DNA of 49,847 nucleotides from Escherichia phage vB_EcoS_W011D (NC_054893.1); one strand, 5' to 3'; counted from the first letter of the stretch, positions 6,241 to 49,847 are shown. The notes: generated by a model from the sequence alone, not told the origin. Made by a program: numbers and translations.

Positions 6241-6260
6241 TTTTTAGCAATTAGTGCTAT
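6241..6260 (-). promoter_or_regulatory. Conserved 20-bp box copy (ATAGCACTAATTGCTAAAAA, minus orientation)
   Basis: Box overlaps the terL TAG stop; TATAAT lies only about 4 nt downstream, then the attenuator hairpin. Confidence 0.5.
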
Positions 6261-10338: not shown

Positions 10339-10395
10339 TTTCAAATCTCCTCGTTTCGCTTCAATGAGGACACTTTAACAAATGTCCTCGCGGAA

Positions 10396-10415
10396 GTTTT
10401 AGCAATTCGTGCTAT
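10396..10415 (-). promoter_or_regulatory. Conserved 20-bp box copy (ATAGCACGAATTGCTAAAAC)
   Basis: Overlaps the TAG stop of the upstream gene; followed by hairpin GAGGACA/TGTCCTC with TAAAGT in the loop region and the conserved leader GCGAAACGAGGAG. Confidence 0.6.
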
Positions 10416-11149
10416 TTGACTTTTTGCAGTTCAAGAAACGCATCAGAGAAGATTTTCGCACTCTTGACGGCTGCAATTAGTTGCTCTGCATTTCGCACCT
10501 GCGGGAACATGTCATAAAGCTGATCAATTACTGCCTCCGCCTTGATGCAATCAGCCTTGTGTTGTTCCGCTTCCTTTTCCAGTTTTGCGATCTGGCTTTC
10601 GGTGTACTGCTTACCATTCAGCGCAACGGTTAGCTCACTCGGTTTAAAGTTGCCGCTGGTGATTTGCATACCTGCATTGTGAACTCGCCAACCCTCACCT
10701 TTTACCGCCGTAGCATCAACGTTGCCGATTGTTACAACAAGCTCGCCATCTTTCCACTGCTCCAACTGGCCTTTGCTGTTGAGGAAATAACCGTTTTTCG
10801 GGTATGCAAATTGAGCCACCAGCTTTGCCGCGTTATCAGCGATTTGGCGAGCCGCCTTTAAGTGATCGCTTTCCCTTGCCGCGTTATAGATGGTTCCGCC
10901 AGGCTTGCACTCAGTTCTCAACACTGACGCCGTTACGTGCTTAACTGCTTCCTCAATGGTCGGGAATTCAACCAGGTTGAACTTTCCGCCGCGCAACCGC
11001 AACGAGCCTTTATCACCGATGTTAACGATCTGCTTTTTGCCTTTGTCGTTGCGCACTTCAACTTGATTTTCACCATAAGAGAAAAGCACTTCGTAAAGTT
11101 TGCCAGCCGTGAAGTTTTCGCCGTTAGTGGTAGGTTTTACATATTTCAT
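10412..11149 (-). CDS. Hypothetical protein (245 aa)
   Basis: Track ORF trimmed to MKYVKP start with GGGAGA RBS. Confidence 0.45.
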   Translation of the reverse strand: MKYVKPTTNGENFTAGKLYEVLFSYGENQVEVRNDKGKKQIVNIGDKGSLRLRGGKFNLVEFPTIEEAVKHVTASVLRTECKPGGTIYNAARESDHLKAARQIADNAAKLVAQFAYPKNGYFLNSKGQLEQWKDGELVVTIGNVDATAVKGEGWRVHNAGMQITSGNFKPSELTVALNGKQYTESQIAKLEKEAEQHKADCIKAEAVIDQLYDMFPQVRNAEQLIAAVKSAKIFSDAFLELQKVK

Positions 11150-11630: not shown

Positions 11631-11696
11631 CTTGTTTTCTCCTCTGATTGGTTGCTTAACTCAACGAGGAGCACTATAACAAATGCTCCTGATTTA

Positions 11697-11716
11697 GTTT
11701 TAGCAATTCGTGCTAT
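11697..11716 (-). promoter_or_regulatory. Conserved 20-bp box copy (ATAGCACGAATTGCTAAAAC)
   Basis: Followed by hairpin AGGAGCA/TGCTCCT with TATAGT 18 nt after the box. Confidence 0.6.
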
Positions 11717-11901
11717 TTTCGGCGCTTCATCAATTCGAACACTTCACGCCCTCCGGCCTTTTTGCCATCATAGTAAGCGGGTATTGAGTAGGCCAGGGCA
11801 AGCACCGCCGCGCCTAAGTGGTTTGTAAAACCTGGCTCCATGATCACGATACCAATCACCGCGATAGCCAACGTTAACAACAGCTTTTTCCAATTCCACA
11901 T
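11713..11901 (-). CDS. Small membrane protein (62 aa, two hydrophobic segments)
   Basis: Track ORF with GAGGAA RBS. Confidence 0.45.
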   Translation of the reverse strand: MWNWKKLLLTLAIAVIGIVIMEPGFTNHLGAAVLALAYSIPAYYDGKKAGGREVFELMKRRK

Positions 11902-12641: not shown

Positions 12642-12698
12642 TGTTTCGTTTCCTTGTTTGGTTGGTATGGGTGCATTATAGCGGGACTGATTGCCCCG

Positions 12699-12718
12699 CT
12701 TTTAACATTTCGTGCTAT
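12699..12718 (-). promoter_or_regulatory. Conserved 20-bp box copy (ATAGCACGAAATGTTAAAAG)
   Basis: Overlaps the TAG stop of the kinase gene. Confidence 0.55.
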
Positions 12719-13293
12719 TTCGCCAGGTGATCGCGTATAATTTCCTCAACCGTTACCATTGGGTTTTTATCCATTAGGTAATAGTCATATTCGCAATATC
12801 CGCTTACGTTGTCGCGCGCGCTACTGATTCGGATGTAGTCGCGGCTATCGCCCTGGAAAGTGAACCCCTCGCGATGGAGGCGGCAAACTTTTACCTCGTG
12901 ACCTCCTCTGATTAGTTCGATCACTTCATCGGGAAAACCGCCATCAGTGCAAATAACCGGAATGTCGCTGCGCTCCGCTTCCTCTGCAAACCGCTTGCCG
13001 AAATACCCATTGCCGAAACGCGGCTTGATTACTTCCTCGCTAATCCAGATCATGAACTGGCGGCAACTCATACCATTCAGGAAGTCATGCGGCTTTTCTT
13101 TCTGTTCGCGGTCATTATACGCCGCCAAGAATTCGCGGTACTTACCAGGTCCAAGCATGGCAAGTGCGATCTCAAACATCGGTTGTTTGAAGCTCAACAG
13201 TCGCAACGGTACTGGTGATTCATCCTTAACCAGCGATCCGATTGTGTCTTTTCCAGCGCCTGGCGGTGCATTCAGAATGATGATTTTAGCCAT
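12715..13293 (-). CDS. P-loop kinase (polynucleotide 5'-kinase-like)
   Basis: N-terminal Walker A LNAPPGAGKDT right after the start, as in the kinase domain of T4 Pnk; GGGGAGAA RBS. Confidence 0.55.
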   Translation of the reverse strand: MAKIIILNAPPGAGKDTIGSLVKDESPVPLRLLSFKQPMFEIALAMLGPGKYREFLAAYNDREQKEKPHDFLNGMSCRQFMIWISEEVIKPRFGNGYFGKRFAEEAERSDIPVICTDGGFPDEVIELIRGGHEVKVCRLHREGFTFQGDSRDYIRISSARDNVSGYCEYDYYLMDKNPMVTVEEIIRDHLAK

Positions 13294-13820: not shown

Positions 13821-13874
13821 GCTTAGTTCCTCGTTGTTTGGTGTGGGGCTACTATACCGCAACCCCAATTTCGT

Positions 13875-13894
13875 GTTTTAGCAATTCGTGCTAT
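13875..13894 (-). promoter_or_regulatory. Conserved 20-bp box copy (ATAGCACGAATTGCTAAAAC)
   Basis: Box follows the TAA-TAG end of a 27-aa micro-ORF. Confidence 0.55.
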
Positions 13895-13977
13895 TACGCG
13901 CCGCTTACAATGATAGCAATGACAATGCTATTAATGATCATGATTGCGGCAAAAACCATCATTTGATATGTGTTCAT
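13894..13977 (-). CDS. Micro-ORF, 27-aa hydrophobic peptide (MNTYQMMVFAAIMIINSIVIAIIVSGA)
   Basis: ATG overlaps the phosphatase TAA stop (TAATG); AGGAG RBS inside the 3' end of the phosphatase gene; manual translation. Confidence 0.4.
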   Translation of the reverse strand: MNTYQMMVFAAIMIINSIVIAIIVSGA

Positions 13978-15018: not shown

Positions 15019-15073
15019 AGTTATTTCCTCGTTTGTTGTCGATGGGTGTATTATGCCGGATTGCTCCGGCGAT

Positions 15074-15093
15074 GTTTTAACAAAAAGTGCTAT
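15074..15093 (-). promoter_or_regulatory. Conserved 20-bp box copy (ATAGCACTTTTTGTTAAAAC)
   Basis: Box contains the TAG stop of the 28-aa micro-ORF. Confidence 0.55.
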
Positions 15094-15176
15094 TTATTCA
15101 TAGCCCATATAAACCATGCTATATGCGCCACATACACAACGCCAATTGATATGGCAAACACTGCATCAATGTTCAT
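15090..15176 (-). CDS. Micro-ORF, 28-aa hydrophobic peptide (MNIDAVFAISIGVVYVAHIAWFIWAMNK)
   Basis: ATGA overlap with the upstream 49-aa ORF; stop is the TAG of the box; manual translation. Confidence 0.35.
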   Translation of the reverse strand: MNIDAVFAISIGVVYVAHIAWFIWAMNK

Positions 15177-16474: not shown

Positions 16475-16933
16475 TTATTCTCCTTTGATCATATTTTCAA
16501 TAATTGCCTGGTAACGCTGCGCCATAATAAGCGCGCCCTCTGCTTTCTCGCCGCTCAAATCTGCAATGTTCGGCATGGTATGCAGCAAACCGCGCATCGC
16601 TTTTGCCACTGCCTTTTGTTCGATTGCGCTCACATCTTCGCTGGTCAGCACCTTACGCTTTGCATCGCGATTCAGGCGGAACACGTAAAACCGCTCGTCG
16701 TCCGTTTCCTCAACCTTAATGCTGATTGTGCCAGCCGCTTTCACTTCCGGCACGCGGTTGATAATTGTCCTGGAATACGAAACGCTTTTCGTGATCTTGT
16801 AGTAATCATCGCCGTTGTGGTTGCTGGCGAGAATATCAAGCGATAGGCGATACTCCTCAACCTCACCGTCTGCCAGCCGCTTTCCCAGCGCTCGCAACCA
16901 ATTGCAATAATCTTTCGTGGTTTTTTCTTCCAT
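16475..16933 (-). CDS. Hypothetical protein, first gene of the leftward early operon
   Basis: Track ORF trimmed to MEEKTTKD start with GAGGAGGAA RBS, just downstream of a consensus promoter. Confidence 0.45.
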   Translation of the reverse strand: MEEKTTKDYCNWLRALGKRLADGEVEEYRLSLDILASNHNGDDYYKITKSVSYSRTIINRVPEVKAAGTISIKVEETDDERFYVFRLNRDAKRKVLTSEDVSAIEQKAVAKAMRGLLHTMPNIADLSGEKAEGALIMAQRYQAIIENMIKGE

Positions 16934-16964
16934 CGTGATTCCTCCTCTGATTGGTTCGGGAGCC

Positions 16965-16992
16965 ATTATAATCAGGCCGCGCGACGTGTCAA
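16965..16992 (-). promoter_or_regulatory. Consensus sigma70-type early leftward promoter (TTGACA - 16 nt - TATAAT)
   Basis: On the minus strand: TTGACA at about 16987-16992 and TATAAT at about 16965-16970 with a 16-nt spacer; A-rich upstream tract. Confidence 0.6.
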
Positions 16993-17029
16993 TGTTTATT
17001 TTGTTTAACAGACGACTACAACCGCACAA

Positions 17030-17650
17030 AAAGACAAAACAGCGCCTAAGTCATTGAAAACAGGCTGTCTTTTTTTCTGTTAACGCTGTTAACGAGTTGC
17101 GGAGGATTAAATATATATAGATGCGCACACGCCACCCCACCCAGGCGAGCGCATACCCATATATCACTATACATCAATCCAGACACTACCCCATATCCAC
17201 CATAAACAGTGTGAACAATAAAAACAACAAATAGATATATATAAATAAATATACTTTAATTTCAATGTATTATAGAGGATTTATAGTGTTTATTTTGTTT
17301 ACTCAACACCGAAAAACGGCGCGGAAACAATGCGGAGAAATCTGTGAACACCCATGAACAAGAGGAGACAAAGCGCCATGGCGAGAGCGAAAACTTGACA
17401 CTTGCGAACCAGGTTTCACCATTCCCCACACAATCAGTAAAAATTCACACTAATTATTGTCTAAACTGCAACAATCACTATCTTGCATGATGTGCAACGA
17501 TATGCGGCTATCATTTCAGATTTTGCAATGGTGCTGCAAAGCGGTTGTTTTATACACAATCCATCAATAGCACTTTTTGTTAAAAGCGATCGGATCTGAT
17601 TTGCTATAGTTACTTCATCGAAACGGGATACCCAATCAGGAGCAAGCAAG
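17030..17650. other. 620-bp AT-rich non-coding region between the divergent early operons, carrying a ~150-bp element homologous to one in 36530-36990
   Basis: No ORF of 60 aa or more with an RBS; contains ACAAATAGATATATATAAATAAATA and GTGAACAC boxes shared with the second region. Confidence 0.6.
17567..17586 (+). promoter_or_regulatory. Conserved 20-bp box copy (ATAGCACTTTTTGTTAAAAG), first of the rightward early block
   Basis: Followed 18 nt later by TATAGT and the CATCGAAACGGGA leader before the 17652 start. Confidence 0.6.
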
Positions 17651-17651
17651 C

Positions 17652-17927
17652 ATGAACATCAGCAAAACTACTTTCAACTTTGCCAAGAAACGCGGTCTGG
17701 ATCTGACTGTTGAGGATTTCGGCGACGGTCTGCAACTGTGCATTTGGGAAGCTGATAACGATTGCGAATGGCTTTGCTCCTACCGCATCAACTATGACAA
17801 CTTAACCTGGCATGGCAACGTTTACCTCCCGCAAGAGATTAAAGAGGAATTACCAGCAACTATTAGCAACGAGGTTTTCTTGCGCCAGGTGCTGAAATTC
17901 ATCAGCGACGAAATGAAAAAGGCTTGA
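17652..17927 (+). CDS. Hypothetical protein
   Basis: 91-aa track ORF with AGGAG RBS. Confidence 0.45.
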   Translation: MNISKTTFNFAKKRGLDLTVEDFGDGLQLCIWEADNDCEWLCSYRINYDNLTWHGNVYLPQEIKEELPATISNEVFLRQVLKFISDEMKKA

Positions 17928-20832: not shown

Positions 20833-21077
20833 GTGAAAAGCGTTATTTAGGCGTTGGCGACGTGCAAAAGGAATGGCGCTATAAAGTCATAGATGGCGAA
20901 ACTTCCTGCATGAAAGTTGGCGATATTATCAAGCCAATTAAGGTTGTTGGCGGCAAATGGCAGATCGGACACAATTACCGCCAATCGTTACCTTTTGAGC
21001 GAATAGATAGCGTTACGGCTGAATGCGTTAGCTCACTGACCGGAAAACTAATGGCTCGCATAGAGCGGATCAAATAG
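20829..21077 (+). CDS. Hypothetical protein
   Basis: 82-aa track ORF; ATGA overlap with the upstream gene. Confidence 0.45.
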   Translation: MSEKRYLGVGDVQKEWRYKVIDGETSCMKVGDIIKPIKVVGGKWQIGHNYRQSLPFERIDSVTAECVSSLTGKLMARIERIK

Positions 21078-21093
21078 CACTTTTTGTTAAAAC
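21074..21093 (+). promoter_or_regulatory. Conserved 20-bp box copy (ATAGCACTTTTTGTTAAAAC)
   Basis: Contains the TAG stop of the upstream gene; followed by hairpin GTTGCCG/CGGCAAC with TATAAT in the loop. Confidence 0.6.
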
Positions 21094-21146
21094 AGGGTAG
21101 TATTGTTGCCGTTATAATTAGCGGCAACAAGAAAGGAGATTTTCAG

Positions 21147-22727
21147 ATGTACGATTTTGAACAAAAACGCTTATCACCAAAAGATATTATCGACACTGCC
21201 GAAAGCCTGGGCGTTTCGCCTCTGCGTGTTGCAATCAACGCAAACGGCTACCGCCAATCATCCAGCTTTTGGGGCGATGTTCAAGATGTTAATTCAGGCA
21301 ATGACCGCTACCCTGTAATTTCGTTGGGAAACGATATTGACGTTGTAGGAAAACTTTCAAGCAATATTGCAAAATCAGTTCAGTTTCCGGCCTCATCAGC
21401 CTATATGCACTTTGTAGGTTGCGTGTCTGCTGCAATGCTCGGTCGTTTTACTGTTGATTATCATGGAACCGATCAGCCAACGGCGCTGTATGTTGTGACA
21501 AGCCAGCCGCCGTCAACTGGTAAATCTGCGATCAACAGCCTGGCGATTGCTCCTATGGTTTGCGAGGTTGAGCGAATCAACGAACAACGCAAGAAAGAGC
21601 GCAAAAAGATTATGGCTAAACTCGCTGGCCTTGCTAAAGAAATGAAAAGCGAGAGATCAGGCGCTGATATGGCGGCACTGTATGAGGAAAAGGAAGAATT
21701 AGAGGAGAAATTGCAAAAACTGTGTGATGTTGTTTTTCCTGTTTCCGACACCACGCCAGAAGGTTTGGCGAAAATCAACAACCGCCAAGGAAATTTTGCG
21801 GTTATCTCGGATGAAGCAACCAGTATTAACAGCTTATTGGGATTGACCTACGCCAACAGCGAGCGCAAAACTAACAGCGAATTGGTGTTAAAAGCATGGG
21901 ATGCGGGACACGTTTCTATTGCTCGTGCCAACGCAGAAAATAACATGAGTTTTAAAGCGCTGGGTTGCATGAGCGTAATTGCTCAGGATGAAACGATAAG
22001 CGGCATTATGGAGGCTGGTTCACGCGGTATCGGTGTTAGTGAGCGTTTCTTGCTGGTTCGTGAAGAATCGTTTTTAGGTCGCCGCACGTTCATTGATGAT
22101 GATGGTGATTCAACCTTTGAGCCAGTAGATCCGACACTGAAAGCGCAATATTATCAACTTATTCATAACATCATGACGGAGGCGGAAGTTTCATTGAAGA
22201 TCAGCAAATCCGCAATGAAATGCTTAAACCGCGCTCGCCAGGAAATGGAGCCAGATCTTGCAGACGGCGGAAAATATTCACATACCATGTTGCGCGGTGC
22301 GCTGGGTAAAATGGATAAGCAAGTTATTCGCATTGCATCAGTTCTGCATGTAATCCGCAACTGGTTCAATGAAAGCGGATCGCCTCAGAAGTCGAGAGAA
22401 ATTGAACTGGAAACTATGCAAGAGGCTTTAATCATGTTCCAGGAGTTGAGCAAAACATACATCAGTGCGGCGAATGCTTCCGGTCACGCTGGCGATGATG
22501 CCGAAATGAGCAAGTTAATCGACATTATCACGCGCCACGGCAAAGCCAACAAAGGGATCTTAAGTGTTCGCGCAATTTACGAATCGGCACGCAAGGTTAA
22601 ACCATTCCTGGGGCAAGCTGGCATTATGAAGCGCATAGAGGAAAATTTACTGCCAATGCTTGAAGATCGAAACTATGTTTGCGTAATCAATGGGCGTGTC
22701 TTTGTGAATCCTGCTTTATTGGGGTGA
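21147..22727 (+). CDS. Large ATPase with Walker A-like PSTGKS (replication-associated, DUF3987-like guess)
   Basis: Track ORF 21084-22727 trimmed to MYDFEQ start with AAAGGAGA RBS; P-loop-like TSQPPSTGKSAIN about 130 aa from the start. Confidence 0.4.
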   Translation: MYDFEQKRLSPKDIIDTAESLGVSPLRVAINANGYRQSSSFWGDVQDVNSGNDRYPVISLGNDIDVVGKLSSNIAKSVQFPASSAYMHFVGCVSAAMLGRFTVDYHGTDQPTALYVVTSQPPSTGKSAINSLAIAPMVCEVERINEQRKKERKKIMAKLAGLAKEMKSERSGADMAALYEEKEELEEKLQKLCDVVFPVSDTTPEGLAKINNRQGNFAVISDEATSINSLLGLTYANSERKTNSELVLKAWDAGHVSIARANAENNMSFKALGCMSVIAQDETISGIMEAGSRGIGVSERFLLVREESFLGRRTFIDDDGDSTFEPVDPTLKAQYYQLIHNIMTEAEVSLKISKSAMKCLNRARQEMEPDLADGGKYSHTMLRGALGKMDKQVIRIASVLHVIRNWFNESGSPQKSREIELETMQEALIMFQELSKTYISAANASGHAGDDAEMSKLIDIITRHGKANKGILSVRAIYESARKVKPFLGQAGIMKRIEENLLPMLEDRNYVCVINGRVFVNPALLG

Positions 22728-23550: not shown

Positions 23551-23556
23551 AAAAAA

Positions 23557-23572
23557 GGAGCCGTTAGGCTCC
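23557..23572. terminator. Bidirectional rho-independent terminator GGAGCCGTTAGGCTCC
   Basis: Perfect 6-bp stem with A8 upstream and T-rich tract downstream; the stop codon and last codons of the u-spanin gene lie inside the hairpin. Confidence 0.7.
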
Positions 23573-23956
23573 TTTCTTGTTTCTACCGTAACCGATAGCA
23601 ACCAGCATGATAGCGATTGCAGCGAAAAACAAAACGCTCGTTTGCCAATCCAGGCCGCTATCTGAATTACGGATCTCTATCTTATCCGCCGTTATGGTTT
23701 CAGCCTGAATGCTTGAGGCGCTCACCTTCTTTTTGTTTGAGGTGTCAACCTTGCCAACGGCTGAATCCTTAATCGTGCTTTCCTGCTTGCTGCTGGTGTC
23801 CTGCTTTGCCGTTACGCCTACCGTTTGTTTTACGTTTTCTGCTCCGGCTTGTGCTGTGATTTCCGGCTTACTGCCAATCAAACCAGTCAGCGCGCTTGAT
23901 GCCGAACAACCGGAAAGCATTACCGAAACTGCAATTGCTGTGATTACTCGTTTCAT
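23564..23956 (-). CDS. Unimolecular spanin (T1 gp11-type): lipoprotein signal plus C-terminal transmembrane helix
   Basis: 130 aa; N-terminal signal with lipobox LSGC; C-terminal hydrophobic helix [16 protein letters not shown] followed by basic tail; directly downstream of endolysin with ATGA overlap. Confidence 0.65.
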
Positions 23957-24447: not shown

Positions 24448-24662
24448 TATTTACCCCTGATTTTGATTGCCTCTTGAATGTCTCCGCGATCTAGTGCTTC
24501 CTGAAACGCCTTGCTATCTTTCCAGCGAAGATAAGCGCCCCATAAACCAAAAGCCGCCATCAACACCAGGCTTGCAACAGCAATTGTGATCTGCCCCGTT
24601 GCCGCGCTGGTTAATGATGATCCGCCAGTACCCATTGTTGCGGCGTTGATAAATTCTTTCAT
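24447..24662 (-). CDS. Holin (single transmembrane helix, charged C-terminus)
   Basis: 71 aa with one hydrophobic helix [21 protein letters not shown] and a Lys/Glu/Asp-rich tail; immediately upstream of endolysin. Confidence 0.6.
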
Positions 24663-24735
24663 GATTAGATCCTCAAAGTTAAATTGTCAATAAATATGTG
24701 AATATATACTAACCAGCCTTGAACGAAAACGGAAC

Positions 24736-26572: not shown

Positions 26573-26628
26573 TTTGCAAATCCTCGTTTCGTTTCGTTGA
26601 AATGATTATGCCCCACTTTCGCGGGGCT

Positions 26629-26648
26629 GTTTTAACATTTCGTGCTAT
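26629..26648 (-). promoter_or_regulatory. Conserved 20-bp box copy (ATAGCACGAAATGTTAAAAC)
   Basis: Contains the TAG stop of 26645-26878; followed by hairpin CCCCGC/GTGGGG then ATAATC and the conserved leader. Confidence 0.6.
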
Positions 26649-26878
26649 TTGTGCATATCGATCATTTCTTGCAGGTCTTTTGCGATCTGTTCTTGCCACC
26701 TCTCAAGAGGTAACGACCTTGTTTCTTCAAAGCTCATATCGAGCGCGCTTGAATACTCCCACGGGTCGCAATCAATAATCTCCTTTGCGTGCGGGTTTTT
26801 ATCTAGCGCCTCGCATACCATTGCGCGGAATAACAACCACTCGCCAGTTTCATTAAGCAACAAGGCTCTTTCTTTCAT
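26645..26878 (-). CDS. Small acidic protein
   Basis: 77-aa track ORF; ATGA overlap with the upstream micro-ORF. Confidence 0.45.
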   Translation of the reverse strand: MKERALLLNETGEWLLFRAMVCEALDKNPHAKEIIDCDPWEYSSALDMSFEETRSLPLERWQEQIAKDLQEMIDMHK

Positions 26879-27736: not shown

Positions 27737-27791
27737 TTTAAATGTCCTCGCTTGTCTTGATGTGTGCATTATGGCGCATTCCGTTGCGCCT

Positions 27792-27811
27792 GTTTTAACA
27801 AAAAATGCTAT
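27792..27811 (-). promoter_or_regulatory. Conserved 20-bp box copy (ATAGCATTTTTTGTTAAAAC)
   Basis: Contains the TAG stop of the VRR-NUC gene; upstream of Dam. Confidence 0.55.
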
Positions 27812-28239
27812 TTATAGAAAAGATCCGCAATAGCCAGTTTGAATTGTTCGAACCCATAAGCCACAGCCGCAAATCCTCCGCGCTGGCGAACATCACGCAA
27901 AAAAGCCTTTTGTTCGTCGCTGACAGGTGATGCCTTTCCCTTTCCAGATTTGTTCACGCGCTTTAATTCAATAGCTGCAAACGGGTATGGCATATCGCTA
28001 TAAGACGGATCACCAATCAAGATAACGAAATCAGAAACACCCTTTCGCAATCCGGCTTGTTCATCCCTCAATGCGCTGGTAATCGTCTTTTGCCCCTCAT
28101 TTACCGTGTGCCAAAATAAAAGTTGCGGGTAATGGTGGCGCAACCACGCCACGCAATCAACCTGGTGCGAATCCTCTTTCCTGGTATCACTCGGATCGCG
28201 TTCGTAATACTCCAGGTAATCTCCCTTATCAGTAATCAT
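27808..28239 (-). CDS. VRR-NUC-type PD-(D/E)xK nuclease
   Basis: 143 aa with SDFVIL ... AAIELK arrangement typical of VRR-NUC; directly downstream of the helicase. Confidence 0.5.
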   Translation of the reverse strand: MITDKGDYLEYYERDPSDTRKEDSHQVDCVAWLRHHYPQLLFWHTVNEGQKTITSALRDEQAGLRKGVSDFVILIGDPSYSDMPYPFAAIELKRVNKSGKGKASPVSDEQKAFLRDVRQRGGFAAVAYGFEQFKLAIADLFYK

Positions 28240-28241
28240 AA

Positions 28242-30242
28242 TTAAAACTCCCGATGATAAATAATATCCTCGCCTTTCGCATTTTTGCGATGCGTAACCT
28301 TAACTGGCGGTAAAATATGATGTGCATAACTCATGATTTTACGCGCATTGCGATAGCTGGCAACCATTCCGGCAATTCTGCGATCTGGAATATGTTTAAG
28401 CGCCGTTTGTCGCCATTTCGTTTTGCAGATCTGGCTATCTGACTCAGGGAAAAACTTTTCGTAAGCCTTAAATGTTTCTCCGTGTGCCTCCAATTCATAG
28501 CAGAACACGATCCCTTTTTGGTTTTTCGTCATATCGACACGGAACGATTTCACATTGCACCAATCGTTTTTGGTGTAGTGCTTGCCGGATAACTTTTCGT
28601 TAGGGTCTATTAGTGACACATCACAATGACGGCAAATTCTCGCTACAACATCATTTTTTGTTCCGCAACCATGCACAATAACTTTTTTCGTGCGCGGGTC
28701 AATCTGATCTGTGCATTCTCTAAATTTCCAGAAGTGTTCACACCGATTACCATTTTCATCAACCTTTATGCAGCGGCGAGCGTAGAATGAATTTTCAGTG
28801 CCGCAAATCGGGCAATGTTTCGGATCTTTTCCGTTGTCGTGTCGGCGCTGAAACTGCGCTTGCTCCAGGATAGGATCAAAATAAAGTTGCCCTAATTCAT
28901 CCATGCATCCGGCAAAGTCTAAAACAAGATGATCGCTTTTCTTGAATCCCTGCTCAACATGCCATTTTTTAAGCAGTCGCATTCCGCGCCCTAAAAGCTG
29001 AATCAGCAACGTGAGCGATCCGATTTTTCGAAGAATAACGGATGTATCCCAAAACGGAACGTTAACGCCAGTTGTTAAGGCCATGACCTGGAAAATATAT
29101 TTCACTTTTCCCTCGTATGCCTCGCGTAACCATTCCTTACGCTGTTTTTCTCCTGTCTTGCCAGTGATAATGCGGTATGTTGTGCCAGGCGGTAAAGCCG
29201 CCGCCGCCTCTTTGCAATGTCGCTCACCAGCGCAAGTTACCAACACGCCGTTTCTGTCTTTGCAGATCTCATGCACGCGAGCCATAATTTTTTGTGTCAT
29301 GGTTGCGTCATTGTGGATCTTCTCCTCCATCTTGCGGAGTGTTTTCTGATCGAAGTCGGCAACGCCATCCTCGCTTGATGCCGTGAACTCTGAAAGGTCA
29401 TACCCCAGGCCATCAACATTGCCAAAATTCGTTGGCACAACAGAACCGAACTCGATCAAATAATTTGTGTCGATGTTCGTTACCTGCTCACGCCAGAAAC
29501 CTTTCTGCTTTTTATCCTCAACCAGAATTGGTACAACACCGCGAAATTCCGATCCAGTCATTCCAAAAATTCGCAACTCATGCCCGTAAGCCTCTTTACA
29601 ACGTCGCTGCATTTCACGAATGATTATTGTGTATTGGCTGCGTCCTGTTCCCTCCATTGGTTCACCGTCTTTTGTGAAAACTTGCGAGCCATCACCATTC
29701 AGGACGCGAACGCCTTTTTTAGTGGTCATTTGCTCGAATGTTTCCTCGCTTTCGATTGAATCCGCTAAATCTTCCCAATCGACCTGGTGACATTCGTCAA
29801 TACCGATAACATGCGGCACATAATCGCCAAGAGCCTTAAACAGACCATTTGCAACAGTTCCCTCGGAACCAACTACAATTGGAAAGTATGCGCTTTTGGT
29901 GTTGAGTCCTGCGCAATAGATAGAGTTTGGCACACCGAAGTTTGTGATCTCCTCTGAATCCTGATCCACAATTTCGGCCTGGCGAGCCAGCACCATCATT
30001 TTTAGCCCCATCTTTTTACACTGCGCGGCAACCATAGCAAAGATGATTGTTTTACCAGCGGAAACGGAAGCCTTTACGAAAAACGGATCGTTGTATTTAC
30101 TCAGGCGCTTTGCGATCTCAGCGTATGCAACGCACTGATAAGGATATGGCTTAATGTCGCCAACGGTAAAGCGATCCTGAATCGCCTTTATCACCGCATC
30201 GCCTAATGTAGATAATTGCTTTTTAATGTTTGGAATTGCCAT
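28242..30242 (-). CDS. SF2 (DEAD/DEAH-type) DNA helicase with C-terminal zinc-finger region
   Basis: 666 aa; Walker A SVSAGKT, DExH box IGIDECHQV, and C-terminal CPICG/CRHC cysteine pairs. Confidence 0.75.
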   Translation of the reverse strand: MAIPNIKKQLSTLGDAVIKAIQDRFTVGDIKPYPYQCVAYAEIAKRLSKYNDPFFVKASVSAGKTIIFAMVAAQCKKMGLKMMVLARQAEIVDQDSEEITNFGVPNSIYCAGLNTKSAYFPIVVGSEGTVANGLFKALGDYVPHVIGIDECHQVDWEDLADSIESEETFEQMTTKKGVRVLNGDGSQVFTKDGEPMEGTGRSQYTIIIREMQRRCKEAYGHELRIFGMTGSEFRGVVPILVEDKKQKGFWREQVTNIDTNYLIEFGSVVPTNFGNVDGLGYDLSEFTASSEDGVADFDQKTLRKMEEKIHNDATMTQKIMARVHEICKDRNGVLVTCAGERHCKEAAAALPPGTTYRIITGKTGEKQRKEWLREAYEGKVKYIFQVMALTTGVNVPFWDTSVILRKIGSLTLLIQLLGRGMRLLKKWHVEQGFKKSDHLVLDFAGCMDELGQLYFDPILEQAQFQRRHDNGKDPKHCPICGTENSFYARRCIKVDENGNRCEHFWKFRECTDQIDPRTKKVIVHGCGTKNDVVARICRHCDVSLIDPNEKLSGKHYTKNDWCNVKSFRVDMTKNQKGIVFCYELEAHGETFKAYEKFFPESDSQICKTKWRQTALKHIPDRRIAGMVASYRNARKIMSYAHHILPPVKVTHRKNAKGEDIIYHREF

Positions 30243-30297
30243 TTTAAACCTTTAACGTTGGTTCGTTTGACGCTATACTACACGCCTAAACATATGG

Positions 30298-30318
30298 GTT
30301 TTTAACAAAAAGTGCTAT
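30298..30318 (-). promoter_or_regulatory. Conserved box copy (ATAGCACTTTTTGTTAAAAAC) in the divergent helicase / regulator intergenic region
   Basis: Only copy that does not follow an upstream gene; followed by TAGTATAGC about 14 nt later, upstream of the helicase start. Confidence 0.55.
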
Positions 30319-30331
30319 TGAGGAATTTACT

Positions 30332-30775
30332 ATGAATCGAATCGCTGTTTCAACTGGTGAAGTGGATAAACGCACAATCAATGGTAATAACGGGACACGT
30401 CGCGGAAAAGACAAAAAGCCGCGCAAGCGCAAAACAGGTTACTACGTGCTGAAAGATGAAGTAAAGGCCGGATTGCGTGCGCGCCTTGATATCTTACTGG
30501 AGTATTACGGAACGCAAGCCGAAATGTCGCGCCGTTTGAAGGTGTCGTGTCAGACCATTAACCAATGGAAGAAACGAGGCATGATTTCCGCCAGCGGAGC
30601 GCACAAGGTTCATCAGGACTATAAGCGCCAGGGGTGCAAGGGCTATCGCGCTTCATTCTGCCGCCCCGATCTGAAATTCGATTCAAACGGCAAGCCGTTA
30701 ACACTCAAGTGTGAAAAGCGCGAAATGCTCCGCGTTGTTCGCGCCTCAGATTTCGAAAACAGCACAAATAGCTAA
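30332..30775 (+). CDS. Helix-turn-helix DNA-binding regulator candidate
   Basis: 147 aa; basic N-terminus; HTH-like AEMSRRLKVSCQTINQWKKRGMIS; first gene of the rightward primase operon. Confidence 0.45.
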   Translation: MNRIAVSTGEVDKRTINGNNGTRRGKDKKPRKRKTGYYVLKDEVKAGLRARLDILLEYYGTQAEMSRRLKVSCQTINQWKKRGMISASGAHKVHQDYKRQGCKGYRASFCRPDLKFDSNGKPLTLKCEKREMLRVVRASDFENSTNS

Positions 30776-30831: not shown

Positions 30832-31779
30832 ATGAGCGAAATGCACGAAAACATGATGTTTCAGAAAGAGGATGTTTTACCTTACATGAAAGGAATGTGG
30901 CGTGATGCGCTACAAAGCATTTGCGGACTACATTCTGACGTGTTCAATAAAAAACATCAGCCTTGCCCTAACTGCGGCGGCAAAGACCGTTTTAGATGGA
31001 CTGATAAACTTGATAGTGATGGCGACGGCGGCGCGATCTGCAACGGATGCGGTAATGATTCCGGCGTTGGCTGGATGATGAAACTTACTGGCGAGCCTTA
31101 CAGTGAAGTGATTAACATCCTGGGGCGCTTTCTTGGTAAGGTTCCGCAAGAGTACCGGATAAAGGCAAATAAACGCGCATCGCGTGCATCAGGTTACAGT
31201 TTCGGATCTCAGGCTCCGCACGAGAATTGCGTTGCTGTAATGGAGCGAACCGAACTGCGCCACAAAACGCCGTTAAGCGTTTTTGAGGGTATAGCGCCGC
31301 CAGATGATGAAATGTATTCCGTAGGTGTGAAAACTCTGGAGGATGGCGAAGAATCGTTAATTCACGCCATACCGTGTTACCTGGTGCATGATGATGAATT
31401 GGATGATGAAATGTGCAACATTCTTTTCATTGACGACAACGGAAATCAAAGTTTTTACGCAAAGGATTACACGCGCGGCTCGGTTGCGGTGACGGGTAAA
31501 ACTGACAAGACGATCTATCTTTGCGTTGATTGGGTTGATGCTCAACACATCCACTTATCGACGGGGCAAGAGGTTTGGGCGTGCTTCTCACAATACAATC
31601 TTGAAATGGTTGCATATCGCTATAAAGGAGATCGCAAAATGCGTGTCGTGTGCAAGCCTACCGATCAGGATGTGATAATCTCAGCGGAGGAAAGGGGACT
31701 TGACGTGATGATCCCGATTAACGATAATTTCAAACAAGGGATAGAGCGGAAGTTATACAAACCCGAATCTTTCCTTTAG
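30832..31779 (+). CDS. DNA primase candidate with N-terminal zinc-binding motif
   Basis: 315 aa; CPNCGGKDRFRW ... ICNGCGN zinc-ribbon arrangement near the N-terminus; adjacent to the helicase region. Confidence 0.5.
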   Translation: MSEMHENMMFQKEDVLPYMKGMWRDALQSICGLHSDVFNKKHQPCPNCGGKDRFRWTDKLDSDGDGGAICNGCGNDSGVGWMMKLTGEPYSEVINILGRFLGKVPQEYRIKANKRASRASGYSFGSQAPHENCVAVMERTELRHKTPLSVFEGIAPPDDEMYSVGVKTLEDGEESLIHAIPCYLVHDDELDDEMCNILFIDDNGNQSFYAKDYTRGSVAVTGKTDKTIYLCVDWVDAQHIHLSTGQEVWACFSQYNLEMVAYRYKGDRKMRVVCKPTDQDVIISAEERGLDVMIPINDNFKQGIERKLYKPESFL

Positions 31780-34106: not shown

Positions 34107-34205
34107 ATGTCTGATATAACTCTGTTACCAACTGGCGGAGATTTTGGTGGTGAAGCTGGGCGGCTGGCCTTGGCGGTGCTGGGAATGGCAGAAAGCGAAA
34201 AATAA
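34107..34205 (+). CDS. Candidate micro-ORF, 32 aa (MSDITLLPTGGDFGGEAGRLALAVLGMAESEK)
   Basis: ATG with GAGGTG RBS; ends at a terminator hairpin; in the 290-bp gap between the fibre gene and SSB. Confidence 0.25.
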   Translation: MSDITLLPTGGDFGGEAGRLALAVLGMAESEK

Positions 34206-34209
34206 AAAA

Positions 34210-34225
34210 GGAGCCGAAAGGCTCC
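34210..34225. terminator. Terminator GGAGCCGAAAGGCTCC (same hairpin as 37226-37241)
   Basis: Perfect stem with GAAA tetraloop; T-run on the minus strand after the SSB gene, weaker T-tract on the plus strand. Confidence 0.65.
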
Positions 34226-34234
34226 TTTAGTCGT

Positions 34235-36515: not shown

Positions 36516-36543
36516 CATTCTAGCCATTTTTCGCGTTTAGTCA
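36516..36543 (-). promoter_or_regulatory. sigma70-type early promoter for the recombination operon (TTGACT - 16 nt - TAGAAT)
   Basis: On the minus strand, TTGACT and TAGAAT separated by 16 nt directly upstream of the exonuclease start. Confidence 0.5.
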
Positions 36544-36990
36544 ATAGGTGTAATGTTATTTTTTGTTTTCTGTTGTTTGTTTTCTATAGTGATAACAAAA
36601 TTGCATCGTAAGTTATTGATTTTGTCTTTGTTGTTTTTGTGTTTACCGTGTTCACAGATTTACGCCGGATATATAGGAATAGATACACATAAACAAAATG
36701 ACCATTACACAAAGTGAAATCACCACAACCAACCAAAAACCAATGAAACATAGAGAACAAAAAGAAACAAATAGATATATATAAATAAATAAACTCTTAT
36801 TTTTCATGTATATAGTAATATTTACTGTATGCTTATTGCTCAATAGCTGATTAAAAAATAAGCTAAATTTACGCCTACGCAAATTCGTGAACACTCTGGA
36901 ACAAAAGAAAACAAACGATAGCACTTTTTGCTAAAACTTCCGGTCGAGATCGTGTATAGTGAGCGCATCTAAACCAAAAGAGGAAAACAA
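36530..36990. other. 460-bp AT-rich non-coding region carrying the second copy of the ~150-bp element shared with 17030-17650
   Basis: No credible ORF; shares ACAAATAGATATATATAAATAAATA and GTGAACAC boxes with the first region, same orientation and spacing. Confidence 0.6.
36917..36936 (+). promoter_or_regulatory. Conserved 20-bp box copy (ATAGCACTTTTTGCTAAAAC) upstream of the Cor-like gene
   Basis: Followed 17 nt later by TGTGTATAGT (extended -10-like). Confidence 0.55.
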
Positions 36991-36991
36991 A

Positions 36992-37219
36992 ATGAAAAAG
37001 ATGATTGCCGTTTTAATTGCAGCCGTTGCCCTGACTGGTTGCGCAAATATGCCGAAACGCGAATGCACCGCAATTTATGAGAATAGCGGAATGGATTATG
37101 AAGTTGCGATCTTTGGCGTTAAGCGAATTAACGATCACACATTCGTGAAGCCTGGCTATCCTTTCAGTTATCATTGGGTTAGCATTGAAAACTTTAAAAA
37201 CGCAGATTGCAGCATTTAA
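36992..37219 (+). CDS. Small lipoprotein, Cor/Llp-like superinfection-exclusion candidate
   Basis: Track ORF trimmed to MKKMIAVL start with AAGAGGAAAA RBS; lipobox LTGC; 75 aa; encoded opposite to and just beyond the tail-fibre genes. Confidence 0.5.
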   Translation: MKKMIAVLIAAVALTGCANMPKRECTAIYENSGMDYEVAIFGVKRINDHTFVKPGYPFSYHWVSIENFKNADCSI

Positions 37220-37225
37220 AACAAA

Positions 37226-37250
37226 GGAGCCGAAAGGCTCCTTTTTTATT
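37226..37250. terminator. Bidirectional terminator GGAGCCGAAAGGCTCC plus T6
   Basis: Identical hairpin to 34210-34225, between convergent genes. Confidence 0.7.
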
Positions 37251-44265: not shown

Positions 44266-46956
44266 TTACCCCCTCTTACTATTAACAAAGTTATAAACCT
44301 CGCCGCCTTGCGAGCAAGACCGCTGAATCATTTCCGTGAAAATCATCTTGATTCCTGTTTCCATCCCTTTTGGATCGTTGCCGTTGTTCACGTCAACCAT
44401 GATATCACCGAAATTGAATTGAGATCCAACACCGCCAGCCGCCGCGCCGCGAGAGTATGACGAACCGCCAACACTGCCGCCGTTTGCATATCCACGCATT
44501 AAGCGGTAAAGGTTTTTGGCTCCGATTCGTTGCGTTGCCTCTTTGGTGAAAACAAACTCACCTTTATGAACCACGCCAGCCGGATCATATTTGCCACCAT
44601 CGCCAGTGTAACCGCCTCCCGCAAATCCTTTGGCTAACCCAGCAAACGAGAACGTTGCGCCGCCCATAGCGCCGGATATGGCGTTAAAAATTGCCATCTT
44701 AGCGATCATCTGCACGATCATTTTAATGATGCTCGTTGCAAAGTCTTTAAAGCTTGCTTTTCCGGTAGTCAGGAAATCAGTCATCATGCTTGATAGACCA
44801 TTCAGACCAGCGGTTGCAATTTCGTTGATGTTCGCATAAACGTTTGTTGCCTCAGCGCCATAATCGGCAAACGCCTTTTTAGCACCTGCAACCCAATTGT
44901 TTTGCAACTCGTCTTGCTTGTCGTAAAACGCTTGCTGTTTGGCTAACATATCTTGCAACGTCTGATCATCTTCCTCGCCGCCTTTTGCAACGTAATCGTC
45001 CCTTATCTTCTGCAATTCAAGCTCTCGCTGAATTTGTTGATCTGTCATGCCTTTTTGCTTGAGGTTCAATTCTTCAATCGCTGCGGTTGTCTGCCGGATG
45101 AATTCGACTGAATTTTGCTCAAGTTTGTTTTTGCGCTCCTGAATCAAAATCTGATCGCCTAACTCGGCTTTTTGCCTGGACAACTCAAGCACGCTTTGCT
45201 GTTCGGCAAGTAACTTTTTCTCCGCTGCTGTTAGTCCTCGTTTGCTCTGCGCCTCCTGCAAAATCTCGATCTGTTTTTCAACGCTCCATAGCGATTGGCG
45301 CTGGCGTGAAATTACATCGTTTACAGTTCGGTGCTCTTGCAACGTTTTCAACTGCGCTTGCAAAACGTATAGCTCTTTATCAAGCTGTTCAACAGGACTT
45401 TTGACAATTCCGCCTTTTGTCTTTGTCTTTCCTTTTTTCTCCTCCAGCTTTTTGAGATCCTCAAGCTCTTTACGGCGTAAAGCAACGTTTTCAGCCGCCT
45501 TGCGTTTTAGCTCCTTGTCGGAAGATTGAGCAACATATTTTTCATCTTCAATCGCCTTGTTTAGCGCCTCTTGCGCCGCACGCAAGCGGTTTAATGAAAG
45601 GTTTGTTTTGTCAATCTCTCCAGCACGCTTTGCAAAATCAATGTTGCTTTCTTTCACGATCTTTGCAATATCTGCGTGCGTCTGCTTCGCAATCTCAAGC
45701 CCTCTGTTAATGTGTCCCAATTCCGCATCAGCCAGGGAGCCGCCACCGCCGCCAGTTTGTGAAATGTACTGCTTTTTCTTTTTCAGCACTTCCAACCATG
45801 AATCGCCAAGCTGTAGCACTTTGTTCATGTGATCCGCGATCTCATTGTTGAGGCTCACGAAACTGGATGCGTTTTTGTACTCGTCAACTTTCGCCTTTGC
45901 TTCATCATAGCTATAACCAACGTTAACAAGTTTTTCAATGGCCTGTTGAGCGCTGTCTTTTGTGGTGATGTATGCTTTCGCGATCTCCTCTGCGCTCTTG
46001 CCGGAAGCGTCAGCCAGCGCCTGGATACCTAAAGAAATCTTTTCCGCGAATTCACCGGAAAGCCCAGTTGCATCCTGAACGGTTTTTGATACTTCGTCGA
46101 GCGCCTTTTTAGAACTGTACGCGTTGTAAGTCAGATAACCTAACGTACCAACCAGCGCCGCAAGGCTAACGTTAAACGGCGTGATGAACGTCGCCAGCGC
46201 CTTAAACATCGGAACCAGACCGCCGAAAGAATCTTTGATCTGTCCACCCTGCTGGATAGCGATTAACCAGATAGGCATACCGCCAGCAAGCGACGTTGCA
46301 ACGTCTGTGATCTGCGCCGGAAGCATTCGCATTGCCTGGCGATATTGCCCCATTGAAACGCCCAGCTTTTCAACTTCCTTTTCCTGCGCTCTCAACTGCG
46401 CGATAAATGGCGCTGCTTGCGCGCTTACGCCAAGTTGCGCCGCTTTCATTTCCGTTAGCTCGGCTTGTGTCTTTCCTGCCGCTGCCGCTTGAGCCTCAAG
46501 AGCCGCAATGAATTTCTGCGCCTCAGCCGCCGCCTTTGCTTTCTGCTTTGACTCCTCAAGCGCTGCGCGTCCCTCCTCGGTTAACGCCTTGCGGTTTGCA
46601 GCCAGCTTGTTTGTTTGAGCCTCCAGCATTTCACCCAACTGAAAAAACGTTTCATCAGGGACAATGCCTTTTTTCCATAAGGTATCAAGTTGCTTTGATG
46701 CCTGGCGCAATTTATCCATTTTTGCCGCTGTCGGATCAATTGCATTTTGGATGCTCTGAAACTCTCGGCGCTGTTTTGCTAATTCCTGCGCAAGCTCTTT
46801 GGCTCGTTGCTTTGCAACTTGCTCCTGATCAACAAAGTCCTCAACGCTTTTTGCTGCTTCATTGTTGGCCTGTTTGAATTGCTGCAAGGATTTTACGGCG
46901 TTGTTTACCTGTGAAACGTCAACGCCTAACGATAGCCCAGCGTATTGTTCCGCCAT
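44266..46956 (-). CDS. Tail tape measure protein
   Basis: 896 aa, long Ala/Lys/Glu/Gln-rich coiled-coil regions and a hydrophobic central segment; follows the frameshifted chaperone pair. Confidence 0.85.
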
Positions 46957-48393: not shown

Positions 48394-48795
48394 TTAGATC
48401 CTCTTTTCTTCAACTCTAACACTGAAACGAACCGGAACAAGCCAGCCTGTTTCACTTTTCTGAACGGGTCGAACTTCTCCGCCCTCATATATATAACCAT
48501 GCTCAAGCATTTTACCATCTTCAAAGAAATCAGCAATATTTTTTGCCAGCCTCCGCGCCTTGTCGGTTCCAGCGCCAGGGGCAAAAATGATGTTTACTTG
48601 AACAAGGCCGATGTAGGATCGGCACTTTCGATCAAGAGATAAATAATCGCTGCTCACTTCTTTATAGTGAAAAGCCAACCACGGCGAGCCGTCATTAGGT
48701 GGCACAAACTCAACGTTTTCATATGCGATCTTGAATGTGTTTTCGTATTCCTCAGCAAGCGCCTTACGCGCCGCGAGCATTAATTCATAGTGCAT
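48394..48795 (-). CDS. Tail terminator / tail completion-like protein
   Basis: 133-aa ORF immediately upstream of the major tail gene; GAGGG RBS. Confidence 0.45.
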   Translation of the reverse strand: MHYELMLAARKALAEEYENTFKIAYENVEFVPPNDGSPWLAFHYKEVSSDYLSLDRKCRSYIGLVQVNIIFAPGAGTDKARRLAKNIADFFEDGKMLEHGYIYEGGEVRPVQKSETGWLVPVRFSVRVEEKRI

Positions 48796-49225
48796 TTTTA
48801 GCCCTCGACTCTTTTATTGCTTCCGCCATGAATGATCGCAACCTTATTGCAACGATACCGACAACACCAGCGGGAGCCTGTTTAGAATGACCATACTCAA
48901 GCGCATTAGCGTAAATGAGCATGTTTGAAAAGTGGATTGACCTAACCGCGCCGCCGCCGCGCATGATTGCATAAATGGCTCGCTTGCCCTCTGCAATAGT
49001 CTGTTGCCCGTCTTTGTCGTACTGGTTGAGCGCGTACAATGGCGGCTTGTTGGCTGTTACTTGCCAGTTGCCTTTAAATCGTCCTGTATCAACTGGCGAG
49101 CCGTTTACTAGTGCCTCTTGTACCTTTCCTGCGAATATCTCAATGCAATCAGTCAGGCCGCTATCAACCGCATTAATCCACTTATCTATGTTGCCATGAA
49201 ATTGACGGATCGAATAGTTAGCCAT
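48785..49225 (-). CDS. Head-tail joining (neck) protein candidate
   Basis: Track ORF 48785-49297 trimmed to MANYSIRQ start with GGAGGA RBS; position between head and tail genes. Confidence 0.4.
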   Translation of the reverse strand: MANYSIRQFHGNIDKWINAVDSGLTDCIEIFAGKVQEALVNGSPVDTGRFKGNWQVTANKPPLYALNQYDKDGQQTIAEGKRAIYAIMRGGGAVRSIHFSNMLIYANALEYGHSKQAPAGVVGIVAIRLRSFMAEAIKESRAKNAL

Positions 49226-49589: not shown

Positions 49590-49847
49590 TAACAAACCCT
49601 CCGGCGACGTAAACCAGACACAAGGCCAAAGCCGCCGCCTTTCTTCCGGTTTAATGTTTCATACATTTTGCCCCACGGTGTTTGTCGGATTTCTTTGCCG
49701 GATGAATCAGCGGAAACGCGATCAAACGTCTGTGAAAATTCACCACTCAGGGAAAATGACGCAACTCGACGGGAATATGAATCCACGCTCTCACCTTCCT
49801 GTTTCATAGCGCCGTCAAGCGTCATAAGGTGCAACGTATAGAGCGCA
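49589..49847 (-). CDS. Head-tail adaptor-like protein spanning the window ends (true gene is about 139 aa; N-terminal part at 82-242)
   Basis: Track ORF 49589-49834 starts at the window edge; in the circular genome the same frame extends upstream to an ATG near 242 with GGAGGAAG RBS. Confidence 0.45.

Follow-up and report, generated by a model that had tools for sequence, protein, structure and literature searches.

Two copies of a cassette of ∼400 bp lie 19.5 kb apart in the genome of Escherichia phage vB_EcoS_W011D (NC_054893.1), at 16988-17377 and 36530-36934 of the window, by which we mean the whole 49,847-nucleotide stretch of DNA that was analysed. Judging from the anatomy and conservation of the cassettes, we hold the chances to be about even that they are cis-acting replication sites, acting either as two origins or as one origin and a second required site. 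Elements of this kind are known, and it appears to be the identification of candidates in the T1-like family that is new.

The two intergenic regions that hold the cassettes are related well beyond the expectation for AT-rich DNA. A local alignment of one region against the other, in the same orientation, scored 80, whereas dinucleotide shuffles scored 23.1 ± 2.6 with a maximum of 32. The preliminary description, made from the same DNA, had proposed a homologous element of ∼150 bp in both regions; it was right about the homology but considerably underestimated the size of the element. The aligned core (17203-17294 vs 36745-36837) includes an exact 28-mer, AACAAATAGATATATATAAATAAATA, in both regions, and MAFFT also aligns the parts of the two copies to the left of the core that had first been noticed. 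We built a profile HMM on recE-upstream sequences taken from 14 other phages, excluding the window and its close relative; with nhmmer it matched 16988-17377 with an E value of 2.9e-33 and 36530-36934 with an E value of 5e-55 and gave no other plus-strand match in the window. Region-against-region scores within other genomes were 94 for Stevie, 119 for an unclassified contig, 66 for T1, and 141 for Rtp, with shuffle maxima of 27 to 36. The reading that the similarity is a chance likeness of functionless AT-rich DNA draws on the low complexity of the sequence and on the fact that unrelated cores are already ∼0.6 to 0.7 identical. The alignment scores in all five genomes and both profile E values speak against it, as does the retention of position and internal order in three subfamilies, and we regard it as already refuted by the shuffle and profile results.

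The first intergenic region matches Escherichia phage PaulSarasin (Drexlerviridae, Tempevirinae, Changchunvirus) at 98.6%, and the gene order matches that of T1. This region spans 16937 to 17651 (∼715 bp), with the ATG of the flanking gene at 16936 according to the PaulSarasin annotation, rather than the 620 bp from 17030 to 17650 initially assigned to it, while the second region spans 36528 to 36992. The first region divides two diverging arms of small early genes, of which the rightward one leads to a Dcm methylase and a DUF3987 helicase. The second lies upstream of recE-erf-ssb and adjoins the tail-fibre and cor genes. As originally noted, neither region has a credible ORF: the longest ORFs in 25 homologous regions range from 36 to 104 codons and vary in strand, place, and length, with no conserved ORF among them. 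Short hypothetical proteins are annotated in both regions in the records of PaulSarasin (bas09_0063), PMBT35, KLB26, BananaBelafonte, and G3B1; their strand and position vary by record, and they are probably over-calls. The ends of the window carry an exact 81-nt direct repeat (1-81 and 49767-49847), which is most likely the assembly overlap of a circularly permuted genome and not a biological terminal repeat; the genome is therefore complete and was assembled as a circle.

Alignments of 16 second and 9 first regions, together with a map of the hexamers, gave the anatomy of the cassettes. The features of the first copy are as follows.

16988-17377, plus strand: cassette copy 1 (nhmmer match over model positions 24-384; local alignment to copy 2).
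16965-16992, minus strand: leftward sigma-70 promoter of copy 1, TTGACA-16-TATAAT, the sole 12/12 consensus match in the window, heading the leftward early operon.
16993-17009, minus strand: array A1, T-rich hexamers directly upstream of the -35 (hexamer map; conserved alignment block of the first region).
17067-17094, minus strand: array B1, GTCTTTTTTTCTGTTAACGCTGTTAACG, which aligns with array B of copy 2 and is conserved in other phages.
17097-17123, unstranded: G+C clamp TTGCGGAGG followed by a TATATATA box (conserved as TTTRCGSNGG plus TATATA in both regions of many phages).
17124-17202, plus strand: A+C-rich, G+T-poor stretch, read directly, with the same bias at this position in all aligned phages.
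17203-17230, plus strand: array C1, three DRAACR hexamers with 9-bp spacing directed toward the AT core.
17231-17278, unstranded: AT core 1, candidate unwinding element (z of 4.6 to 5.2 at 30, 50, and 100 bp), the best conserved block of the region.
17284-17302, minus strand: array D1, hexamers directed back to the AT core (hexamer map; conserved alignment block).
17338-17373, plus strand: array E1, AAATCTGTGAACAC-CCAT-GAACAAGAGGAGACAAAG.

The second copy has the following features.

36530-36934, plus strand: cassette copy 2 (nhmmer match; ∼70% DNA identity, 188 phage records).
36517-36544, minus strand: leftward sigma-70 promoter of copy 2, TTGACT-16-TAGAAT, heading recE-erf-ssb.
36553-36584, minus strand: array A2 (hexamer map and alignment).
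36621-36661, minus strand: array B2, with GTGTTCACAGATTT as its final element (local alignment and hexamer map).
36659-36686, unstranded: G+C clamp TTTACGCCGGAT and TATATA box (alignments of second regions).
36745-36770, plus strand: array C2, GAAACA-TAGA-GAACAAAAAGAAACAA (hexamer map).
36771-36824, unstranded: AT core 2, the other candidate unwinding element (z of 4.2 to 5.2, in the two lowest ranks of duplex stability).
36881-36916, plus strand: array E2, AAATTCGTGAACAC-TCTG-GAACAAAAGAAAACAAAC, conserved in TLS-like phages in which it is followed by neither a rightward gene nor a promoter.

The gene downstream of the copy 2 promoter is annotated as exonuclease VIII in relatives. The order common to the cassettes is a leftward promoter, arrays A and B, a G+C clamp with TATATA, the A+C-rich stretch (about 60 to 80 nt on the plus strand), array C, the AT core, array D, a second clamp, and array E. 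Each cassette has five arrays of the degenerate DRAACR hexamer, and the T-rich hexamers of arrays A and B are DRAACR read on the minus strand. Array D, on the minus strand, is readily recognised in copy 1 and in many phages but decayed in copy 2 here. Within the arrays the hexamers start 8 to 10 bp apart and form triplets, e.g., TGAACA/GGAACA/AAAACA, and a spacing of 9 to 10 bp therefore places the repeats on the same helical face. Triplets adjoining the core face inward from both sides and those on the flanks face outward.

The GTGAACAC box on which the preliminary description had focused is real, although incomplete, since it is merely the first hexamer of a phased array, that of array E. 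The pair of boxes described is present (AAATCTGTGAACAC at 17338-17351 and AAATTCGTGAACAC at 36881-36894), and so is the inverted box, GTGTTCACAGATTT at 36648-36661, which matches 17338-17351 at 14 of 14 positions. A further inverted box placed near 17207-17215 turned out to be in direct orientation (GTGAACA at 17211-17217, inside array C1). In the window, the two 390-nt segments richest in this class of hexamer are the cassettes, with 12 each against a mean of 3.6 ± 2.1. The two regions make up 2.4% of the sequence and contain four of the seven GTGAACA heptamers in the window and three of the four copies of GTGAACAC.

By nearest-neighbour energies, no duplex segment in the genome is less stable than the two AT cores, which take the first two ranks at 30, 50, and 100 bp, with z values of 4.2 to 5.2, whereas the next-ranked segment reaches 3.4 to 3.6. 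The cores are ∼50 bp long, rich in (TA)n, and follow the pattern ATAGATATATATAAATAAATA...TGTATTATAG. The third least stable segment, at 24661-24711, lies upstream of the holin gene, has no hexamer arrays, and overlaps a 10/12 match to a leftward sigma-70 promoter (24690 to 24661).

The duplicated design is present in Tempevirinae, Tunavirinae, and Braunvirinae. With blastn, 188 phage records matched the second region and 83 the core of the first, and the cassette profile matched the first region of phage tonijn with an E value of 3e-40. The two least stable 50-bp segments of T1 and of Rtp again fall inside the two regions. The repeat words change between lineages: GTGAACA is common to this genome and Stevie, and GAAACA is found in the unclassified contig. 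In T1, none of the six copies of TGTAACA or the eight of TATATATA lies outside the two regions, and those of Rtp hold all six copies of CCGCGGA together with phased GCGTAAC. In T1 and Rtp the GGCGTAAT and GCGTAAC repeats are spaced 10 to 11 bp apart. Words that differ by lineage and yet are restricted to both regions point to one sequence-specific factor per lineage that would act at both sites.

T1 and Rtp also carry GGCGTAA(T/C) repeated with a 10- to 11-bp period beside the AT core (Rtp, 45750-46219 with 1-545 and 27918-28259; T1, 48675-48836 with 1-538 and 29851-30377). The complement of this word in Tempevirinae is the conserved clamp TTTACGCC (36659-36666 and 36869-36876 in the window), and it may represent a second, family-wide class of repeat beside the lineage-specific hexamers.

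The two copies inside a genome are 0.75 to 0.78 identical and copies across lineages 0.72 to 0.77. Intragenome identity is thus not above that between lineages, from which it follows that the duplication is old and that both copies have been retained. Concerted evolution was considered and set aside on the same comparison, with no clear gene conversion. The region is alignable across genera while its flanking small protein is only 44% identical, which argues for purifying selection on it. An exact 25-mer from the core was found in IMG/VR only in this genome and one close relative, a rarity of matching that makes exact-word searches uninformative for the cassette. A locus search with the flanking 152-aa protein gave only four loci, and BLAST matches were used instead. 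No blastn match to the cassette was found in Escherichia coli genomes and plasmids, and there was thus no sign of a satellite or plasmid sharing it.

Of the three functions suggested in the preliminary description, a candidate origin fits the anatomy best, a regulatory region remains a rival, and a pair of small RNA genes fares poorly. Two features of iteron origins are found in the cassettes, namely, an AT segment of low stability and short repeats spaced at about a helical turn. If the cassettes are replication sites, a phage protein would bind the phased repeats, bend or wrap the DNA, and open the core. The helicase would then load head to head at the opened core, and the P4 alpha-type primase would begin synthesis. 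The strong built-in host-type promoter would fire away from the core early in infection, and the negative supercoiling that this leaves could aid opening. At the lambda origin, transcription aids opening. Three proteins of the phage are candidate partners in such a scheme.

21084-22727, plus strand: DUF3987 (MCM-like, SF6) helicase (Pfam DUF3987, E value of 2e-41).
30832-31779, plus strand: P4 alpha-type primase (BLASTP E value of 6e-13; Pfam Zn_Ribbon_Prim).
30332-30775: Cro/YdaS-like protein, another candidate binder, encoded beside the primase gene and conserved across the family.

The likeliest binder would be the winged-helix tail of the helicase, with the Cro-like protein less likely. 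The last 86 residues of the helicase match a separate PHROG, and an AF2 model of this tail, made from a shallow alignment (seven close relatives found), is a winged helix with a pLDDT of about 90. Foldseek returned generic winged-helix matches for the tail, including the MCM4 WH domain. Kazlauskas et al. grouped DUF3987 with the MCM-like SF6 helicases and noted a C-terminal winged helix (PMC4889955). The tail is about 38% conserved relative to T1, against 58% for the helicase overall, which is compatible with a change in specificity. A PDB sequence search with the helicase gave nothing relevant. By eye, matches to DnaA boxes and IHF sites in the cassettes were weak and unconserved.

Several observations weigh against an origin. 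The AT core is conserved in its very sequence as well as in its composition, whereas composition alone would suffice for a passive unwinding element. The repeats are degenerate and A-rich, and arrays A and E sit at positions of upstream elements or activators. Both cassettes coincide with early promoter regions, so that transcription could be what the AT-richness and curvature are for. The winged helix of the helicase tail is of a generic type only, and BLASTP shows no likeness to the P4 origin-binding region. GC skew is uninformative here because the first cassette is also the switch point of transcription. On the side of an origin, none has been reported for T1 or its relatives in the literature searched. 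The 2024 TLS paper sought origin-like repeats and found none, and it does not mention the cassette (PMC11447400). Searches on the T1 origin, transcriptome, and pac gave nothing past that paper, and the Lamassu preprint concerns only the lambda origin.

The nearest working analogy is the ori/crr pair of satellite phage P4, which is not of the same family and whose resemblance is only a lead. In both systems, one short repeat recurs at two separate cis sites, where it flanks AT-rich DNA in both orientations. In the P4 record the type 1 repeat TGTTCACC, to which the alpha primase-helicase binds, has 6 copies in ori and 10 in crr, spaced 9 to 11 bp apart, with the variant TGTTCACA in crr. Among the boxes of the present phage, three have the form TGTTCACA and one TGTTCACG; an array holds one or two of them, compared with the 6 and 10 of P4. 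Between the phage primase and the N-terminal primase part of P4 alpha (residues 20-243) there is homology over 235 residues (E value of 6e-13), whereas the helicase here is of the DUF3987 (MCM-like) and not the P4 type. When P4 alpha was compared by BLASTP with the helicase and with the HTH protein, no similarity emerged that would reveal the origin-binding domain of alpha, and the cassette profile had no match in P4 DNA. Since T1 and Rtp use other repeat words, the octamer match to P4 is probably a coincidence or convergence.

Two further systems offer partial parallels. In Bacillus phage SPP1, Missich et al. in 1997 reportedly described oriL and oriR as distant sites with the same boxes and an AT-rich region, both bound by the origin-binding protein G38P. 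Like the present phage, SPP1 is a virulent siphovirus of the pac type, similar in size, in which two origin-like copies of one design lie far apart; its replication proteins are not known to be related, and one of its origins is located within the initiator gene, in contrast to the intergenic position of both sites here. The origins of staphylococcal pathogenicity islands are reported by Ubeda et al. in 2007 and 2012 to consist of two sets of short iterons that flank an AT-rich stretch and are bound by a helicase whose specificity resides in its C-terminal part, alongside a separate primase. The islands share with this phage a split primase and helicase, a separable C-terminal helicase domain, and repeats flanking an AT core, and differ in having a single origin beside the helicase gene and a helicase of another family. 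A more specific form of the replication reading can be drawn, in which the cassettes would be paired, co-evolving origins: the MCM-like helicase would load itself, its winged-helix tail would read the inward repeats and melt the (TA)n core, and the two sites would cooperate through looping, like P4 ori/crr. We consider this specific form unlikely.

The main rival to the replication reading is that the cassettes are duplicated upstream regulatory regions of the early promoters, through which the two leftward early operons are tuned in strength and timing. The A-rich phased arrays would then be UP-like or curved DNA, or else operators at which the Cro-like protein (30332-30775) or nucleoid proteins of the host bind. 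We regard this as a possibility of some weight, if on the improbable side. It would account for the leftward sigma-70 promoter in each cassette, one of them the only perfect consensus in the genome, and for the position of array A next to the promoter -35 and of array E next to the 21-nt repeat promoter, and it could draw on a Cro/YdaS-like protein that is conserved family-wide. It accounts less well for a conserved unit that reaches ∼370 bp upstream of the promoter, well past usual upstream elements, or for core-flanking arrays that face inward at a segment with no predicted promoter. Array E is retained in TLS-like phages that lack a rightward gene or promoter and is therefore not merely a promoter element. 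T1 and Rtp also keep the AT core and repeats where, by eye, there is no clear leftward consensus promoter (first region of T1 and second region of Rtp).

Transcription could have a more direct role if the core were a transcription-primed origin or a small untranslated RNA gene, with a promoter at its right edge (a minus-strand TATAAT, e.g., the complement of 17269-17274) reading into the G+T-rich minus strand and the leftward transcript acting as an R-loop primer or a regulatory RNA. Of 10 cores inspected, 8 have the minus-strand TATAAT at the right edge, both T1 copies among them, and the plus strand to the left of the core is A+C-rich in all the phages, so that a leftward RNA would be G+U-rich. 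Against this, a TATAAT is expected by chance in (TA)n-rich DNA, it has no -35 match, and promoter and terminator prediction gave no call inside the cores. RNA folding of both strands of both cores gave no signal (z of -0.6 to -1.5), and Rfam gave no match at the gathering threshold for the whole window or at E≤1 for 16900-17700. Such a transcript at the core is in our view quite unlikely. The pair of small RNA genes suggested earlier finds no support in the same results, which gave no core promoter, terminator, folding signal, or match to a known family.

Promoter-coupled origins, of which lambda ori with pR, the T7 primary origin, and T4 oriF and oriG are examples, share with the cassettes an AT-rich unwinding segment, here a candidate element, near an active promoter. 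The cassettes differ in that their promoter is directed outward from the core and that prediction gives no transcript running through it.

An intergenic direct repeat of 21 nt, aaATAGCACnnnTTGnTAAAA, is known in T1-like phages, typically ∼76 nt before a start codon, and unexplained (TLS paper, PMC11447400). In the window, this repeat (ATAGCACnnnTTGnTAAAA) has 21 copies spread over the genome, where 0.2 would be expected, nearly always along the direction of the neighbouring genes and each upstream of a start codon. Examples are 6242-6260 (minus), 15075-15093 (minus), 17567-17585 (plus), 21074-21092 (plus), 30300-30318 (minus), and 36918-36936 (plus). One copy closes each of the two regions, at 17567-17585 and 36918-36936. 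The cassette is a different element and is without the repeat, which sits just to the right of each cassette copy. In the first region ∼200 bp of additional sequence precedes the closing repeat promoter, whereas the second region runs directly into its copy.

In aligned first regions, the 21-nt repeat lies ∼19 nt before a -10-like hexamer (TATAGT, TACATT, or CATAAT), followed by a conserved leader, CATCGAAACGAA, and is therefore at the -35 position. In this it resembles the MotA box, which occupies the -35 position in T4 middle promoters. At leftward copies, a G+C-rich hairpin lies between the repeat and a -10-like CATAAT (10371-10417, 11672-11718, 12674-12720, 13850-13896, 15049-15095, 26604-26650, and 27767-27813), with a sequence that varies per copy (e.g., GCCGGATTGCTCCGGC and GCGGGACTGATTGCCCCGC) and with TTTTAAC after it on the other strand. 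It could be either a terminator nested inside a promoter or a stem-loop that is part of the promoter. Separately, three two-way terminator hairpins, AAAAAAGGAGCCGAAAGGCTCCTTT, lie at gene convergences (23551-23575, 34204-34228, and 37220-37244) and are 92 to 100% alike, which is unusually high for independent terminators.

The additional ∼200 bp bears on a further reading, in which the cassette is the recognition site of the terminase for packaging (pac). The GenBank records of T1, TLS, and Rtp all open within the first intergenic region, adjoining GCAACAATCA and TTGCA-N5-TGCAA motifs, and the basis of the start point is documented for TLS: pac was mapped by restriction analysis and placed at AGATTT, and the start of the record was set accordingly (PMC11447400). 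These starts, however, fall in the ∼200 bp unique to the first region, with array E on one side and the 21-nt repeat promoter on the other, outside the duplicated unit, and a second copy 19.5 kb away conflicts with the single headful series described for T1-like phages. That the cassette itself is pac is thus highly improbable. In the window, 17467-17498 (within 17378-17560) carries TGCAACAATCAC and the near-palindrome TTGCATGATGTGCAA, and T1 has GCAACAATCACATC twice and TTGCACACCATGCAA exactly at the start of its GenBank record. The segment around 17467-17498, conserved between subfamilies in surroundings that do not align, is likely the pac region. The first region appears to combine the cassette, the pac region, and a promoter, which would account for its greater length relative to the second.

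T1 is one of the original T phages, and the candidate sites are precisely bounded, which makes the question of its origin directly testable. If the cassettes are paired origins of the kind outlined above, they would be the first defined origin for an MCM-like helicase of a bacterial virus and would offer a bacterial parallel to the eukaryotic viral initiator-helicases that assemble head to head on inverted sites. The cassettes would then be a natural substrate for studying the loading of the DUF3987 (MCM-like) phage helicase. Phage engineers working with these phages, which are widely used as models and as therapy candidates, could avoid or exploit the two regions. Should the cassettes prove to be regulatory, the control regions of the early operons would be defined all the same.
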